A stretch of DNA of 64,000 nucleotides. Origin: Candidatus Levyibacteriota bacterium. GTDB lineage: Bacteria; Patescibacteriota; Microgenomatia; Levybacterales; UBA12049. Numbering within the stretch: position 1 is the stretch's first letter; every line of letters starts with the position of its first letter. The stretch covers positions 269,992 through 333,991 of the forward strand of contig JBDRBE010000004.1 of NCBI GenBank assembly GCA_043823085.1. Direction: 5' to 3'. A program made the position numbers and the translations under genes. Positions 4,807-47,812 of the stretch are shown here, one piece after another. Below the pieces are notes generated by a model. It saw only the letters and a program-made list of their open reading frames with translations. It had not been told where the DNA came from and did no database searches.

Positions 4807-4869
4807 TAAAATAACATTTAAATTTTAACAGATAAGAGTAAATCGAGCAAGATTAAGAATTTAAACTTT

Positions 4870-4921
4870 ATGAAAAAGATAATTTTAGCCTCTGCCTCTC
4901 CCCGAAGAAAAGAATTGTTAA
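4870..4921 (+). repeat. 52-bp direct repeat, copy 1 (duplicate of the maf 5' end; copy 2 at 5881..5932; 3 mismatches)
   Basis: atgaaaaagataattttagcctctgcctctccccgaagaaaagaattgttaaa versus atgaaaaagataattttagcctctgcctctcctcgaagagaagaattgttaaa. Confidence 0.85.
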
Positions 4922-5748
4922 ACTCTCTGTGGTGTTGGTGGAGGAAATACACTTTCTCCGCGGGGTGAGTTTGCAACCTTTATAACCGCATTTTTATCCA
5001 GCCGAAGTGTAAGAGCATAAGAAACCTTAGGAATGCCATCCTGAGGTCTTGGCTTATATTCAACTATCGTGGCAGATACTCCTGAAAGATTAGTTGCAAG
5101 ATCACCTACCCAACCATTCTGTTCGCTACTTTCACTAACATGATGCCATTTTTGATTCCTTCTGGCAAGGTTGATTAACAAAGGTAATGTAGCTCTATCC
5201 GTAAGCAAACCAATTCTTTTAAGCACTGGTTCTAATACCGAAGGATCTGTATGATCAAGTAAATAAAGATAATCACGAGATTGAAATGAGCCTGGGGTCT
5301 TTAGTTCATCTTGAAAAACGTCTTCTACGCCTGCAGGTTTTCCTTCCAATTCTCTTTCCACCTGAATTTTTTCAACCATCTCATGTATGTCATCTGCCAT
5401 CTTACGCAAGTTTTGACTTTTTCCACATAACATCCTTCTACGCTCATCACCTTCAGGAAATCCTTCAGCAACTTCATATAAAATATTATCTAACACTTCT
5501 ACTGGACTTTCTGCCAATTTTTCTTCTACTTCTCGTCTTGCCCTTTCTCCTGCCATCCTAGCAACATCAGCAATTACCCTACGTTGTTCTCGAGGAATAT
5601 CTAGTCCTATTGTTGGGACTATAATCTGTGCTTTTGTTCGCAACTCTGCTCTACGGGCTGAATCGCCCTTGGTATGTCGATTTATACGAGATTCCACTTG
5701 TTGGAGAGATGGTCTTGATCCTACTTCAGATCTTGGCTCACCATTCAT
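4918..5748 (-). CDS. hypothetical protein (276 aa) on a GC-enriched insertion; distant paralog of 21776..22441
   Basis: Long ORF with visibly higher GC than flanks. Shares N-terminal M-N-E-P..GSR and C-terminal YAL...RGE..PPP segments with the 221-aa protein at 21776..22441. Confidence 0.6.
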   Translation of the reverse strand: MNGEPRSEVGSRPSLQQVESRINRHTKGDSARRAELRTKAQIIVPTIGLDIPREQRRVIADVARMAGERARREVEEKLAESPVEVLDNILYEVAEGFPEGDERRRMLCGKSQNLRKMADDIHEMVEKIQVERELEGKPAGVEDVFQDELKTPGSFQSRDYLYLLDHTDPSVLEPVLKRIGLLTDRATLPLLINLARRNQKWHHVSESSEQNGWVGDLATNLSGVSATIVEYKPRPQDGIPKVSYALTLRLDKNAVIKVANSPRGESVFPPPTPQRV

Positions 5749-5880
5749 ATAGTGTCTTTGATGCTAGCATAGTTTTTTTACAAATGCAAGTGGTTTTTTC
5801 TTAAATACCTGTTAAAATACAGAGAGTAAAAATTTGTTTCCCGTACACGGGAGGGGTAAGGAAAGCTTATCCCGCATTTT

Positions 5881-6462
5881 ATGAAAAAGATAATTTTAGC
5901 CTCTGCCTCTCCTCGAAGAGAAGAATTGTTAAAAAATATCGGATTGAAATTCAGCGTTGAGCCAAGCAACTTAGATGAGAACATGACGCTAAATCTAAAA
6001 CCAGCTAAACTTGCTGAATTTTTATCATTCCAAAAAGCTAAAACCGTGGCCAAAAAATATAAAAATTCGATTATTATTGCCGCCGACACAATCGTTGTAA
6101 TCGGAAATGATATTTTAGGAAAAGCGCATACTGACAAAGAGGCAAAACAGATGTTAAATAAACTGAATGGAAAATCTCACTTGGTAATTACCGGATTTAC
6201 AATTATCGATAGCAATACAAATAAAAAAGTAACCAAATCCGAAAAAACAAAAGTATTCTTTAAAAAACTCAATGCACATGAAATAGATAATTATATAGCA
6301 ACAGGCGAACCGGTAAAAAAAGGAGGGGCGGGATCGTATTGCATTCAGGGTTTTGCCTCGATGTTTATAAAAAAAATTAAAGGAGACTATTTTAATGTTG
6401 TCGGCCTGCCGATATATTCGCTTATGGAATCTCTAAAAAAATTTGGCATCAAAGTTTTGTAA
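5881..6462 (+). CDS. maf: Maf-like nucleotide pyrophosphatase (septum formation protein Maf)
   Basis: N-terminal IILASASPRR with downstream conserved Maf/Ham1 motifs; 193 aa. Confidence 0.8.
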   Translation: MKKIILASASPRREELLKNIGLKFSVEPSNLDENMTLNLKPAKLAEFLSFQKAKTVAKKYKNSIIIAADTIVVIGNDILGKAHTDKEAKQMLNKLNGKSHLVITGFTIIDSNTNKKVTKSEKTKVFFKKLNAHEIDNYIATGEPVKKGGAGSYCIQGFASMFIKKIKGDYFNVVGLPIYSLMESLKKFGIKVL

Positions 6463-10662: not shown

Positions 10663-11721
10663 ATGGAAGAAGAGTTGATTGGTATTAAAAATGCCGCGGT
10701 TTCGCTTATTTTTGACGCCAAAGATAAGAAAACACTTGAAGAAACTAAACTTCAGTTTTTAGGAAGAAGCGGAAAATTAACTTTGGCAATTAAAGAAATT
10801 ATCAAAGTTCCCCTTATTAAAAGAGCAGAAATAGGAAGACTTGCCAACGAGGTTAAACAAGCGATAGAAGACGCGCTTGTGAATCAAGAATTAAGAATTA
10901 AGAATCTAGAATCAACGAAGCGAAAAGAAAATGTTGATAAAACTGTGCCCGGCATAAAACCAAAAATAGGCCATCTTCACCCAATGACGCAAGTTTTAAA
11001 TGAGGTTATTGATATTTTTAAAGGCATTGGATTCCAAGCTGCGGACGGGCCGGAAATAGAAACGGATTACTATAACTTCACTGCCTTAAACATGCCACCA
11101 AACGCACCGTCACGCGATACGCAAGCGACTCTTTATTTGGACACCCGAAATAGCAAAGCTGAGCCAGGACAAATTTTGTTACGAACCCAAACCTCTAATA
11201 TGCAGGTTAGGGTTATGGAGAAAACTAAACCACCAATCAGAGTAATAGTTCCGGGAAAAACATACCGCGTTGATGACGTAGATGCTTCACATAGTTTTGA
11301 ATTCTGGCAACTTGAAGGATTTATGGTGGATAAAGACGTTAGAATGACAGATCTTCTTGGAACAATTGATTATGTTCTTAAGCGCTTTATGGGAAAAAAC
11401 ACAAAAACAAAATTTGCCACAACTAATTTTTCATTCGTAGAGCCGGGAATCGACACGTATATGGAATGCACTGTATGCAAAGGGAAAGCCCGCCTGCCGA
11501 ACGGGCAGGGCTGTAGTTTTTGCAAACAAAGTGGATGGAGCGAAATAATGCCCGCGGGCATGATTCACCCAAATGTTTTAAGAGCCGCAGGTTACGATAG
11601 CCAAAAAGTTTCAGGATTTGCTTTTGCAATTGGCCTTTCAAGACTGACAACTCTCCGCTACCAAATGGACGATTTAAGATTATTAACCAATCCGGATTTG
11701 AGAATCCTTGAACAATTTTAA
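10663..11721 (+). CDS. pheS: phenylalanyl-tRNA synthetase alpha subunit (with Cys4 zinc-ribbon insertion as in Firmicutes-type PheS)
   Basis: Class II motifs; FSFVEPGIDTYMECTVCKGK...CSFCKQSGWSEIMPAGMIHPNVL; C-terminal FAFAIGLSRL. Confidence 0.9.
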   Translation: MEEELIGIKNAAVSLIFDAKDKKTLEETKLQFLGRSGKLTLAIKEIIKVPLIKRAEIGRLANEVKQAIEDALVNQELRIKNLESTKRKENVDKTVPGIKPKIGHLHPMTQVLNEVIDIFKGIGFQAADGPEIETDYYNFTALNMPPNAPSRDTQATLYLDTRNSKAEPGQILLRTQTSNMQVRVMEKTKPPIRVIVPGKTYRVDDVDASHSFEFWQLEGFMVDKDVRMTDLLGTIDYVLKRFMGKNTKTKFATTNFSFVEPGIDTYMECTVCKGKARLPNGQGCSFCKQSGWSEIMPAGMIHPNVLRAAGYDSQKVSGFAFAIGLSRLTTLRYQMDDLRLLTNPDLRILEQF

Positions 11722-31935: not shown

Positions 31936-32723
31936 AACAATCTCAAAAATGGTATCAACTCAATTATTTCATGACTATAAAAAAACGCAAGTAATGTTCC
32001 TAAAACTAGAAACGGGCCAAAAGGGATTGTGTCCTTGGAAAACTTTTTCCTGCCAGCTATGACAAGCGCTAGCGCCACGAAAGCGCCGATAATAAAAGCC
32101 ATATAAAGCGCGATAATAATTTTTGGAAATCCCAAAAAAAGACCGGCCAAAAAAACATATTCAACATCGCCAAAGCCCATTCCTTTTCCTTTGGTAATCA
32201 AAAAGATAAGAAGGAAAAAGAAAAAAGCGCCAAAACCTGCCAAAAGATGAATCAGGAATAAGGAATTAAGAATTAGGGATACGTAGGCAAATGTCGCAAC
32301 AACGGCGACAAGAAGAATTCGGTCGGGGATAATCCCATATTTTAAATCGATAAAAAAAATAACGATGAGAGAGGAAACTATAAAAAGATAATAAATTAAT
32401 TCAGCAAAATATTTGATATTTGATATTTGATATTTGATATTTTCATTGGGGAAAAAAAGAAAAACTAGAACAAAAGTGATTCCAGTCGTTAACTCAACAA
32501 CCGGATAATAAAATGAAATAGGGGAGTGACAATAGCGGCAACGGCCTTTAAGAATAATAAAAGAAACAAACGGAATTAAATCATACCAAGCCAATTTTTT
32601 TTTACAGGCTTCGCAATGCGACCGGCCTTTAAATACTGACTCACCGCGGGGAAGTCTATCGATTACAACATTAAGAAAACTTCCAATACCAAGACCTAAA
32701 AAAAAGAGCAAAAATATAACCAC
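31932..32723 (-). CDS. pilD: prepilin peptidase (A24 family)
   Basis: CxxC...CxxC zinc motif (GRSHCEACKK...CRYCHSPIS), multiple TM segments, acidic catalytic residues. Contains a heptanucleotide repeat. Confidence 0.85.
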   Translation of the reverse strand: MVIFLLFFLGLGIGSFLNVVIDRLPRGESVFKGRSHCEACKKKLAWYDLIPFVSFIILKGRCRYCHSPISFYYPVVELTTGITFVLVFLFFPNENIKYQISNIKYFAELIYYLFIVSSLIVIFFIDLKYGIIPDRILLVAVVATFAYVSLILNSLFLIHLLAGFGAFFFFLLIFLITKGKGMGFGDVEYVFLAGLFLGFPKIIIALYMAFIIGAFVALALVIAGRKKFSKDTIPFGPFLVLGTLLAFFYSHEIIELIPFLRLL

Positions 32724-39211: not shown

Positions 39212-40468
39212 ATGAAATACGATATCAAAGATATTAGTTTAGACAAGGAAGGTAAATTAAAAATTGAGTGGGCGAGTCAACAAATGCCGGTTTTAAGGCT
39301 TATTGAAAAAGAATTTCAAAAAGAAAAACCATTGGAAGGAATAACTATTGGCGCCTGTCTTCATGTCACAAGTGAAACCGCAAATTTAATGCTGACTTTA
39401 AAAGCAGGAGGTGCAAACGTAATTCTTTGCGCTTCCAATCCTTTATCGACTCAAGATTCTATTGCCGCATCGCTGGTTCATGATTACGAAATTCCAACTT
39501 TTGCCGTAAAAGGGGAAGACAACAAAACTTTTTATAAACATTTAAATATGGTTTTGGATTTTCATCCTCAAATCACTATGGATGATGGCGCAGATTTAGT
39601 TTCGCTTTTGCATAAAGAAAGGAAAAATCAAATTAAAGAAATCACCGGCTCAAGCGAAGAAACAACAACCGGAATTATAAGACTTAAAGCAATGGAAAAA
39701 GAAAAAGTGTTGAAGTTTCCGGTTATTGCGGTCAACGATAGCGATACGAAACACATGTTTGATAACAGATACGGCACAGGACAATCATCAATTGACGGAA
39801 TTTTGCGGGCGACAAATATTCTACTGGCCGGTAAAAATTTTGTAGTCTGCGGATATGGCTGGTGTTCAAGAGGAGTTGCAACAAGAGCAAAAGGCATGGG
39901 AGCAAACATTATAATTACAGAAGTTGATCCAATTAAAGCATTGGAGGCGGTTATGGACGGATTTAGAGTTATGAAAATTCAAAAAGCGGCAAAGATTGCG
40001 GATATAATGATAACTGCAACCGGCGACAAGAGTGTCATTGATAAAAAAGTTATTGATAATTTAAAAGACGGCGCAATAATTGCAAACACCGGCCATTTTA
40101 ATGTTGAAATTGATATTGAATATTTAGAATCTGCAAAGAAAACTAAAAGAAAAATGCGAGATAATCTGGAAGAATATGTTTTAAAAAATGGCAAAACAGT
40201 TTATCTTTTGGCAGAAGGAAGACTCGTAAATTTAGCATCTGCCGAAGGACATCCGGCAGAAGTTATGGATATGAGTTTTGCCAATCAAGCTTTGGCCGCT
40301 AAATTTATAGTTAAAAATAAAGGCAAATTAAAAAATAAAGTTTATGTTTTACCCAAAAATATTGACAGAACTATTGCGTTTCTAAAACTCAAAGGGATGG
40401 GAGTTAGCATTGACCACCTGACTAAAGTTCAAAGAAAATATCTTACAAGCTGGCAGGAAGGAACATAA
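39212..40468 (+). CDS. ahcY: adenosylhomocysteinase
   Basis: [10 protein letters not shown]; NAD-binding [10 protein letters not shown]; TEVDPI; about 418 aa. Confidence 0.9.
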
Positions 40469-40488
40469 CCTCACATCGATTACATATT

Positions 40489-41304
40489 ACCAAAGGTGGC
40501 ATACCTAATCCACCTCTAAGGTGGATTTCTATTGACACCTCTGGTTTTCGACACTAGAATAAATTATGCCCGGAAGAAATACTATTCTTGCGAACGGGGA
40601 AACATATCATATTTTTAATAGAGGAGTTGCCTCTCAACCAACATTTATAGACAAAAAAGATTATCAGAGAGTTATGGATAGTTTCTTCTATTACCAAAAC
40701 ATTACTCCTCCAATAAAGTATTCAAAATTTTTAATGATTTCCGCTAAAGAGAGAGACAATATTATAAATAATTTAAGAAAAAAGAAATTTTTCCATGCTG
40801 ATATCATTGCTTATTGTTTTATGCCTACTCATTTCCATTTATTGTTAAGACAAAATGAAGAAAATGGAATCTCAAAATTTGTAGGAAACTTCACCAACAG
40901 TTATACAAGATACTTTAATACAAAACGGGAAAGAAAAGGACCAATCTTTGAAGGCAAATTCGGTTCTGTAAGAATTGAAACAAGCGAACAACTACTTCAT
41001 GTTTCGAGATACATTCACCTTAATCCTTACTCGTCTTATCTTGTTAAAACAACTCAGGAGCTCGAGTCTTTTACCTATTCATCATTTAATGAATATATCG
41101 CAGGTAATAGTAATCTTTGTAATAAAGACTTCATTCTGGAAAATTTTAAGACCGCTAAGGAATATAAAAAATTCGTTTTTGATCAAGCAGACTACCAAAA
41201 AAAACTAAACAACATTAAACACCTTCTCTTGGAGAATTAGCGGAAATACCAAAGGTGGCATACCTAATCCACCTCTAAGGTGGATTTCTATTGACACCTC
41301 TGGT
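40489..41304 (+). mobile_element. IS200/IS605-like element: HUH (Y1) transposase gene flanked by identical 57-bp hairpin-containing ends in direct orientation
   Basis: accaaaggtggcatacctaatccacctctaaggtggatttctattgacacctctggt occurs at 40489..40545 and 41248..41304. Each copy holds the ccacc-tctaa-ggtgg hairpin. Confidence 0.7.
40566..41240 (+). CDS. IS200-like / REP-associated tyrosine (HUH Y1) transposase
   Basis: HUH motif PTHFHLLL; catalytic Tyr region LHVSRYIHLNP. Confidence 0.7.
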   Translation: MPGRNTILANGETYHIFNRGVASQPTFIDKKDYQRVMDSFFYYQNITPPIKYSKFLMISAKERDNIINNLRKKKFFHADIIAYCFMPTHFHLLLRQNEENGISKFVGNFTNSYTRYFNTKRERKGPIFEGKFGSVRIETSEQLLHVSRYIHLNPYSSYLVKTTQELESFTYSSFNEYIAGNSNLCNKDFILENFKTAKEYKKFVFDQADYQKKLNNIKHLLLEN

Positions 41305-41356
41305 AAAAATTCAAAAAAAATGCGGTGGAAATTTAGACATAGATTTGCTAAAATAG

Positions 41357-43312
<1,956 letters not shown>

Positions 43313-47691: not shown

Positions 47692-47812
47692 ATGGACGAT
47701 GGAAAATAGAAAATAGATGCTGGAATTTGATGATGGAAAATAGAAAATAGAAATTCTACCCTCAAACATCCAACCTCAAAATCTATTTTCTAGCTTCCAC
47801 CATCTATCGTCA
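47692..47812 (+). repeat. complex repeat region: 19-bp direct repeat gatggaaaatagaaaatag x2 plus inverted partner ctattttctag, bracketed by gacgat / atcgtc
   Basis: Read directly in the hppA-gyrA intergenic region. Confidence 0.6.

Follow-up and report, generated by a model that had tools for sequence, protein, structure and literature searches.

The 64,000-nt stretch of Candidatus Levyibacteriota DNA analysed here (contig JBDRBE010000004.1; "the window") carries a gene for a Y1-type HUH single-strand DNA nuclease or transposase-like protein, set between two copies of a hairpin-forming repeat in the slot between ahcY and gyrB (Table 1). A first-pass annotation had described the arrangement as an IS200/IS605-like transposon with identical 57-bp ends in direct orientation.

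The locus, its repeat units and the Y1 protein

Repeat finding and DNA search returned the two repeat copies as a perfect direct repeat on the plus strand (100% identity), of a kind of which none is expected in shuffled sequence. The identity of the ends thus stands, and their length is 58 nt, one base more than first given. The window holds no third copy of the 58-mer, even at three mismatches, and the core CCACCTCTAAGGTGG has no occurrences besides those at 40510 and 41269. Identity ends sharply at the 58-nt borders and the flanking bases differ; the 58-mers are therefore not part of a longer duplication of host DNA, an origin that the first-pass annotation had named as one that would refute its proposal. 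The downstream unit begins 6 nt past the Y1 stop codon. There is no tnpB at the locus, where the neighbours of the Y1 gene are ahcY and gyrB, and no second Y1 gene within the 64 kb.

Folded as single-stranded DNA, each 58-mer forms on either strand one long imperfect hairpin at −14.6 to −15.9 kcal/mol (z = −5.2 to −6.4), in which AATCCACCT pairs with AGGTGGATT in the centre and ACCA.AGGTG with CACCT.TGGT further out; each unit is about 71–75% self-complementary. A hidden Markov model (HMM) of 64 related units matches two sites only in the window, each on both strands (44 bits on the plus and 32–34 bits on the minus strand), so that each 58-mer consists of two oppositely oriented half-units around one central hairpin. 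The general unit measures about 36 nt and is made up of a foot (TACCnAAGGTG, 10–11 nt), an 11-nt spacer and the hairpin CCACC-TCTAA-GGTGG. Foot-bearing units in related genomes come as A units (ACCnAAGGTGGCGTAkCTrTT plus hairpin) and B units (ACCCAAGGTGTCAATAGnATT plus hairpin). The 58-mer of the window is a fused "double-foot" of foot A, hairpin and inverted foot B, like the fusion upstream of the Y1 gene at the comparison loci L001 and L009. Pairing beyond the 7-bp stem (offsets 3–7) is no better than base composition predicts. The direct orientation of the ends is literally correct but of limited meaning, given the self-complementarity of the units and the roughly equal frequency of direct and inverted hairpin arrangements among homologs. 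As observations on the units elsewhere, a second partial 3′ stem half ((A)GGTGGAA) lies 4–10 nt downstream of many of them (L010:4311, L023:5167, L034:637, L070:7183, L071:3055, L075:2579, L029:7245), and L029 has a partial hairpin in tandem.

The inverted second foot of the upstream unit holds the TTGACA −35 box of the Y1 gene, whose ATG lies 5 nt past the −10 box TAGAAT (ending at 40560). From this spacing we infer a leaderless or near-leaderless mRNA. The same arrangement (TTGACA-N17-TAnnnT-~6 nt-ATG) is found upstream of orthologs and paralogs and occurs in 35 of 69 protein-anchored loci. The hairpins have no match in Rfam and are not followed by the T-run of an intrinsic terminator, and readings of the units as RNA elements or terminators were dropped. 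A role as mobile promoters for the units that bear a promoter was considered and likewise dropped; the solo unit at L010:4311, for example, points into the 3′ end of the gene beside it. On the other side of the cassette, GGTGGAAA (41324–41331), 20 nt past the downstream unit, overlaps a −35-like hexamer of a candidate gyrB promoter.

Table 1. Coordinates of the features at the Y1 locus, counted within the window.
Feature	Position	Strand	Basis or remark
S-adenosylhomocysteine-hydrolase-like gene (ahcY), upstream neighbour	39212..40468		
Upstream 58-nt "double-foot" repeat unit	40488..40545	+	Repeat search, folding, HMM; architecture from comparison with ~100 related units
Upstream unit, foot TACCAAAGGTG	40488-40498	+	Comparison with related units
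Upstream unit, spacer GCATACCTAAT, 11 nt	between foot and hairpin	+	Comparison with related units
Upstream unit, hairpin CCACC-TCTAA-GGTGG	40510-40524; extended stem 40507-40527	+	
Upstream unit, inverted second foot CACCTCTGGT	40536-40545	+	
Y1 gene promoter, sigma-70-like (TTGACA, 17 nt, TAGAAT)	40532..40560	+	11/12 consensus positions
Y1 HUH single-strand DNA nuclease/transposase-like gene, 224 aa	40566..41240	+	Open reading frame (ORF), Pfam, motifs, fold model
Downstream 58-nt repeat unit, identical to upstream unit	41247..41304; core hairpin 41269-41283	+	
gyrB, downstream neighbour	41360..43312		

The identification of the gene as a Y1 HUH gene holds: its product matches Pfam Y1_Tnp (E = 3.9e-9, residues 65–151) and carries THFH (H89, H91) and RYIHLNP (Y149), positions that are invariant in 26–36 homologs. 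Invariant positions of the family include Y14, H15, N18, H89, H91, Y149-I-H-L-N-P and S172-S173, and the family consensus (lengths 221–230 aa) reads NHFH ... FQ ... YIHLNP ... SS (172–173), from which the window protein departs with T88 for N before the HuH and with E128, FE for FQ. Among the best 120 of 4608 matches in a homolog search, lengths are 217–274 aa (nearly all 220–230) and identities 55–67%, and the named sources are Levy-, Gottesman- and Shapirobacteria and other metagenome-assembled genomes (MAGs) of Microgenomates and Patescibacteria. The 90% protein cluster of the window protein has one member on one contig, an identical protein assigned to a Candidatus Levyibacteriota MAG.

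IS200/IS605 TnpA proteins (subclass 1.1) are about 150 aa long and have the HuH motif D-H-[VI]-H and the Y motif Y[IV]ENQ (PMC6006769, Table 1). The window protein lacks this signature (DH[VI]H, Y[IV]ENQ), and its Y motif is Y---NP (class 2) and not the IS200-type Y---Q. The key motifs of subclass 2.1 are NH[YF]H, FQ (or W[EQ]), Y[IV]HLNP and a proximal SS, with a median length of 238 aa and a C-terminal domain (Quentin et al. 2018, PMC6006769, Table 1), and the family motifs NHFH, FQ, YIHLNP and SS match this row. An AlphaFold2 model (pLDDT 85, pTM 0.84) adds a C-terminal extension, helical and about 70 aa long. By Foldseek its closest fold is that of E. coli TnpA_REP 4er8 (E = 1.8e-6, TMt 0.73), with IS608 and ISDra2 at TMt 0.52–0.62. 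Single-sequence phmmer found no match among PDB sequences, and a profile of homologs found ISDra2 TnpA (E = 9e-4) and 4er8 (E = 3e-3). The protein is thus of class 2 of the RAYTs (tyrosine transposases associated with repetitive extragenic palindromic (REP) sequences), to which a sub-threshold match to NCBIfam REP_Tyr_transpos also points; by published motifs only, it is closest to Quentin subclass 2.1, which equals Bertels Group 1 and consists largely of TIRYTs (PMC6006769, Table 1). The Y---NP motif, the top fold and the solo units of related genomes thus bear out the earlier suggestion that the protein is nearer to RAYTs than to TnpA.

Related loci and dispersal of the units

Loci for comparison were collected by homolog look-ups (L001, L002), by searching GTDB genomes for the core WTCCACCTCTAAGGTGGAW, which gave 88 stretches, and by a protein-anchored metagenome scan (80 loci). 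About 80 homologous loci of the candidate phyla radiation (CPR) have the same layout as the window, and at least 12 orthologous loci share the order hairpin, TTGACA foot, Y1, foot, hairpin. On the 5′ side of the orthologs, an optional outer foot is followed by CCACC-TCTAA-GGTGG, AATGCTA-TTGACA-CCTTTGGTA, about 8 nt, TAnnnT, about 6 nt and the Y1 ATG; on the 3′ side, the stop codon is followed after a few nucleotides by TACCAAAGGTG-GCGTATCTGTT-CCACC-TCTAA-GGTGG. The gene-proximal feet are thus inverted repeats (CACCTTTGGTA ... TACCAAAGGTG), with the hairpins distal to them.

The flanking repeats are cognate to the gene, as the first-pass annotation had supposed. In 64 of 69 protein-anchored loci the upstream and downstream flanks have an identical stretch of 10 nt or more in common, whereas controls from mismatched loci mostly share 6–8 nt, and 37 of the 69 shared segments contain a Watson–Crick hairpin of at least 5 bp, compared with 2% of shuffles. 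The stems vary in a compensatory manner by protein clade (CCACC/GGTGG, CACACC/GGTGTG, CAACC/GGTTG, CCACT/AGTGG, CCATCC/GGATGG, TTAACC/GGTTAA), and hairpin type tracks the neighbour-joining order of the Y1 proteins. L001 holds three divergent Y1 paralogs within 20 kb, each with its own hairpins. Two of these (L001:3385-4071 and L001:19234-19902; 35% and 41% identity) come in addition to the syntenic gene and have their own flanking hairpins; the former lies between a prepilin peptidase and a pilin gene whose counterparts in the window are only 52 nt apart.

Solo units, for which the first-pass annotation had suggested looking, are dispersed in related genomes. The 19-mer core of the GTDB scan lies in 88 stretches, mostly of CPR MAGs, and around most occurrences the 8-kb locus is without a Y1 gene. 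Exact cores, whose counts are lower bounds, number 15 in CAZIZQ01 (a MAG), 9 in JACOXO01 (Gottesmanbacteria) and 5 in CP066685.1 (closed, 762 kb); only one CCACC-type Y1 locus, flanked by two of the cores, was recovered in each of the three. Chance would give an estimated ~17 matches to the core pattern in 596 Gb at equal base frequencies, which fits the handful of foot-less matches in non-CPR genomes. Most core occurrences possess the conserved foot and spacer, and these are 83% identical between genomes although the search did not select for them, so that the whole unit of about 36 nt is constrained. Of 56 foot-bearing units placed by a crude ORF test, 40 fall between genes, and several others overlap ORF ends or sit within long ORFs. 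Recent intragenomic spread of the units was considered and set aside: similarity within as against between genomes is 0.853 versus 0.826 for A units (p ~0.04), a weak signal, and B units give none.

Some units lie inside genes. A B-type unit (hairpin plus CTATTGACACCTTTGG) stands within the EPSP-synthase (aroA) ORF of two genomes (L002:1010-1047, equal to the L003:6427 region, in CP066685.1; the L067:1486 region in CAZIZQ01), where it keeps the reading frame and is translated as ...SFHLRGGNLLTPLE...; it resembles the in-frame insertions of repeats into genes that have been reported for REPs. Foot-bearing units deep in long ORFs (L011:4936, L022:1954, L031:6150, L077:5848; same ORF test) may be in-frame insertions or ORF over-calls. 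CPR-type Y1 genes with many units were also met in MAGs titled "uncultured Gammaproteobacteria/Pseudomonadales (binchicken)" (L004, L005, L007, L011 and others; assemblies CAZIZQ01, CAYZZG01, CAZYIC01, CAZDQA01 and CAYICL01), and these taxonomic labels look wrong.

Resident gene or mobile element, and other repeats of the window

The window and L001 share a syntenic block of pilins, prepilin peptidase, T2SSF, PilT, PilB, holB, Y1, gyrB ... gyrA, with pfkB and ahcY in the window only. Between the two, the Y1 proteins are 67.4% identical, compared with 66.6% for gyrB, 62.8% for gyrA, 61.2% for PilB and 35.5% for holB. Conservation at the level of gyrB within a syntenic block is housekeeping-like and argues against a recent insertion. 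The perfect ends had been taken as a sign of recent activity, a deduction that comparison does not support: the flanking units are identical over 58 nt in the window, over 32 nt at L001 and over some 35 nt at L009, a recurrence that homogenisation of the two units would explain no less well than recent insertion, and the 90% protein cluster contains no further member.

We read the locus as a REPtron- or TIRtron-like cassette in which a long-resident chromosomal RAYT-class Y1 HUH nuclease gene lies between its cognate repeats, and give this reading a probability of roughly two-thirds (0.68). What carries it is the anatomy of the locus, the class of the protein, the co-variation of protein and hairpin, the solo units dispersed in relatives and the synteny. 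By analogy with TnpA_REP and IS608 TnpA, the Y1 enzyme would bind the hairpin extruded on single-stranded DNA (ssDNA) and use the foot for guidance or recognition. Tyr149, with a metal held by H89 and H91, would cut near the foot and form a 5′-phosphotyrosine link, after which the enzyme could rejoin the strands. Such activity would maintain the units and now and then copy them, giving rise to the solo units of related genomes, and would keep the two flanking units identical by homogenisation. The upstream unit, by giving its −35 box to the Y1 promoter, might in addition permit autoregulation.

Several results weigh against long residence of a RAYT-class gene with its own repeats. The dispersal of solo units is seen in relatives only, the 64-kb window having none, and a 27-mer specific to the window matched nothing among the metagenome contigs. 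The hairpin foot of the unit lacks the 5′ GT[AG]G tag of canonical REPs directly beside it, and no REP-like sequences or structures have been reported for subclass 2.1 (Quentin et al. 2018, PMC6006769). Against NCBIfam NF047646 REP_Tyr_transpos the protein scored 46.2 bits, below the 80-bit equivalog cut-off. L032, a closer relative (82% identity in gyrB, 78% in ahcY), has in its ahcY-Y1-gyrB slot another Y1 gene, only 48% identical, and the CCACC-type Y1 of the same genome lies at another site (L029) and is just 60% identical to that of the window. Inheritance has therefore not been simply vertical, and a whole cassette was moved or replaced at some point. The L032 cassette (L032:3484-4447, minus strand) has a unit of the same design and other sequence (CTCTGTACC ... 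CCGAT-CCCGT-ATCGG ... TTGACG ... GGTACA; hairpin CCGATCCCGTATCGG), and homology to the window restarts at the gyrB promoter region (ATAGATTTGCTAA(A/G)ATAG). Searched for in the window and all loci, the L032-type hairpin CCGATCCCRTATCGG was found at its own cassette only. Beckwithbacteria L027 has a holB-88 nt-gyrB junction without a cassette, and in Gottesmanbacteria L039 a solo A unit precedes gyrB by about 90 nt. Compared as sequences, these loci indicate that over evolutionary time whole cassettes are gained, lost or swapped, and that the slot upstream of gyrB recurs. Such changes fit Y1-mediated movement and replacement by recombination in the flanking genes alike, and do not tell the two apart.

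It is this exchange that a self-mobile cassette would explain. The unit–Y1 module would leave as a 759-nt ssDNA circle, made up of the gene and a single unit, after Y1 cleavage at equivalent positions of both direct repeats, and re-insertion into existing solo units would regenerate the repeats. The perfect 58-nt flanks agree with such a cycle, as do the different Y1 cassette in exactly the same slot of L032 with homology resuming at the gyrB promoter, the solo unit of L039, the empty junction of L027, the three divergent cassettes inside 20 kb of L001 and the description of Group 1 as the most IS-like RAYT group after Group 6 (Bertels et al., PMC5581495). Near-identical gene copies were nevertheless not seen (the 90% cluster has one member) and the linkage of Y1 to gyrB has been kept across gyrB-level divergence; many orthologs have half-units or inverted hairpins only, from which regeneration would need extra assumptions, and homologous recombination in the flanking housekeeping genes could equally swap cassettes. 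We regard self-mobility as unlikely. Of similarly low probability is the proposal of an exchangeable cassette composed of the Y1 gene and a single hairpin unit, which would excise and integrate through HUH-catalysed single-strand recombination between units. If it were true, such cassettes would resemble integron cassettes in function but employ a Y1 nuclease, the slot upstream of gyrB would be a recurrent docking site, and the same activity would also seed solo units, including in-frame copies in essential genes such as aroA.

Two further readings are less probable still. One takes the repeats purely as host regulatory DNA (promoter, operator, terminator or protein-binding sites) without DNA processing by Y1, the protein being a DNA-binding regulator or having some other role. 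The −35 box of a near-consensus promoter in the upstream unit, conserved in homologs, the position of most units just beyond gene ends and the conservation of unit sequence between genomes would suit it; the catalytic H-u-H and Tyr, invariant in all homologs, do not, and neither do the missing T-run, the lack of an Rfam match, solo promoter-foot units directed into the 3′ end of a neighbouring gene (L010:4311) or units in frame within ORFs. We consider it improbable to a high degree. The other is that of a recently active, autonomous IS200/IS605-type insertion sequence moving by peel-and-paste, as the first-pass annotation had it. The Y1 HUH fold is indeed common to IS608 and ISDra2 TnpA, and hairpins lie on the same strand at both, identical, ends. 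Yet the protein has YIHLNP (class 2) instead of Y---Q and is, at 224 aa with a C-terminal extension, of different build; the gene is single-copy (in the 64-kb window, and as the sole member of its 90% cluster), syntenic and conserved like gyrB; no tnpB accompanies it; the ends are one palindromic unit present twice and not distinct left and right ends with separate cleavage sites; and in relatives the genes are far fewer than the solo units. The evidence largely refutes this reading, which of all those weighed we hold the least probable.

Other repeats of the window stand apart from the Y1 locus. An AT-rich motif of 25–33 nt, GAATCAGGAATnAGGAATTAAGAAT, occurs at 924-955 (−), 10881-10905 (+) and 32249-32273 (+), with none expected by chance. 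An imperfect palindrome with 54-nt arms (70% complementary; 47692-47807) fills the gap between a 684-aa ORF and gyrA. Finally, a 56-nt direct repeat (96% identical; 4867-4922 and 5878-5933, 1011 nt apart) includes an ATG and first codons (MKKIILASASP...) and probably marks tandem paralogous genes.

Comparison with known systems

RAYT/REP systems have been studied nearly wholly in Proteobacteria and Cyanobacteria, and our literature search found no paper linking RAYTs with CPR or Patescibacteria. The kind of system described here is already known (RAYT Group 1, subclass 2.1 or TIRYT, with flanking repeats), and the lineage is new. New with respect to the known kind are the hairpin beyond the foot, the lack of both a GTAG tag and GGGGWSAS, the promoter within the unit and the conservation of the unit across several CPR candidate orders. 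Ultra-small Microgenomates genomes thus retain a Y1 nuclease of Group-1/subclass-2.1 type along with a defined repeat (about 36 nt of foot, spacer and hairpin), which is conserved across these orders and offers a compact, sequence-defined substrate for DNA recognition by the least understood RAYT subclass. A note of caution for annotation follows: genes of this type are called "transposase" in MAGs, and that of the window behaves as a resident.

The closest likeness is to the TIRYTs of subclass 2.1 and Group 1. TIRYT genes lie between repeats, and some of these repeats make up families of moderate abundance (Di Nocera et al. 2013, PMC3733652); 16-mers flanking Group 1 RAYTs occur about 12 times per replicon (Bertels et al. 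2017, PMC5581495). The present system agrees with them in protein length (~225–238 aa) and C-terminal extension, in the motifs NH[YF]H, FQ, Y[IV]HLNP and SS, in low copy number, with a separate set of flanking repeats for each divergent paralog, in the inversion of the gene-proximal repeats (TACCAAAGGTG feet) and in repeat families of moderate abundance, about 5–15 per genome. It differs in the conserved short hairpin 11 nt past the foot, in the T for N before the HuH and the FE for FQ of the window protein, and in its host, since the surveys name Proteobacteria and Clostridia whereas the present one belongs to the CPR/Microgenomates. Many terminal inverted repeats of TIRYT genes have the consensus GGGGWSAS (Di Nocera et al. 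2013, PMC3733652), which the present foot does not fit (nearest: GGTGTCAA).

With canonical RAYTs and TnpA_REP (E. coli YafM, 4er8; Pseudomonas Group 2/3 RAYTs) the locus shares the best structural match, 4er8, the single gene between cognate hairpin repeats (REPtron) and the mostly intergenic position of solo repeats, and the 58-nt unit, a long imperfect hairpin of two inverted halves, resembles a REPIN or "double-foot" REP. The window protein is, however, only 15% identical, remains under the NCBIfam equivalog threshold and has an extra C-terminal region. Unlike canonical REPs, the units have no GT[AG]G tag at the hairpin foot, number tens at most and not hundreds, and are conserved over several order-level lineages, whereas REP families are described as subclass-specific (PMC6006769). 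With IS200/IS605 elements (IS608, ISDra2 TnpA), lastly, the locus has in common the HUH/Y1 catalytic core and hairpins near both gene ends on one strand; it is set apart from them by Y---NP, single copy, identical palindromic ends, absence of tnpB and a syntenic, housekeeping-like conservation.

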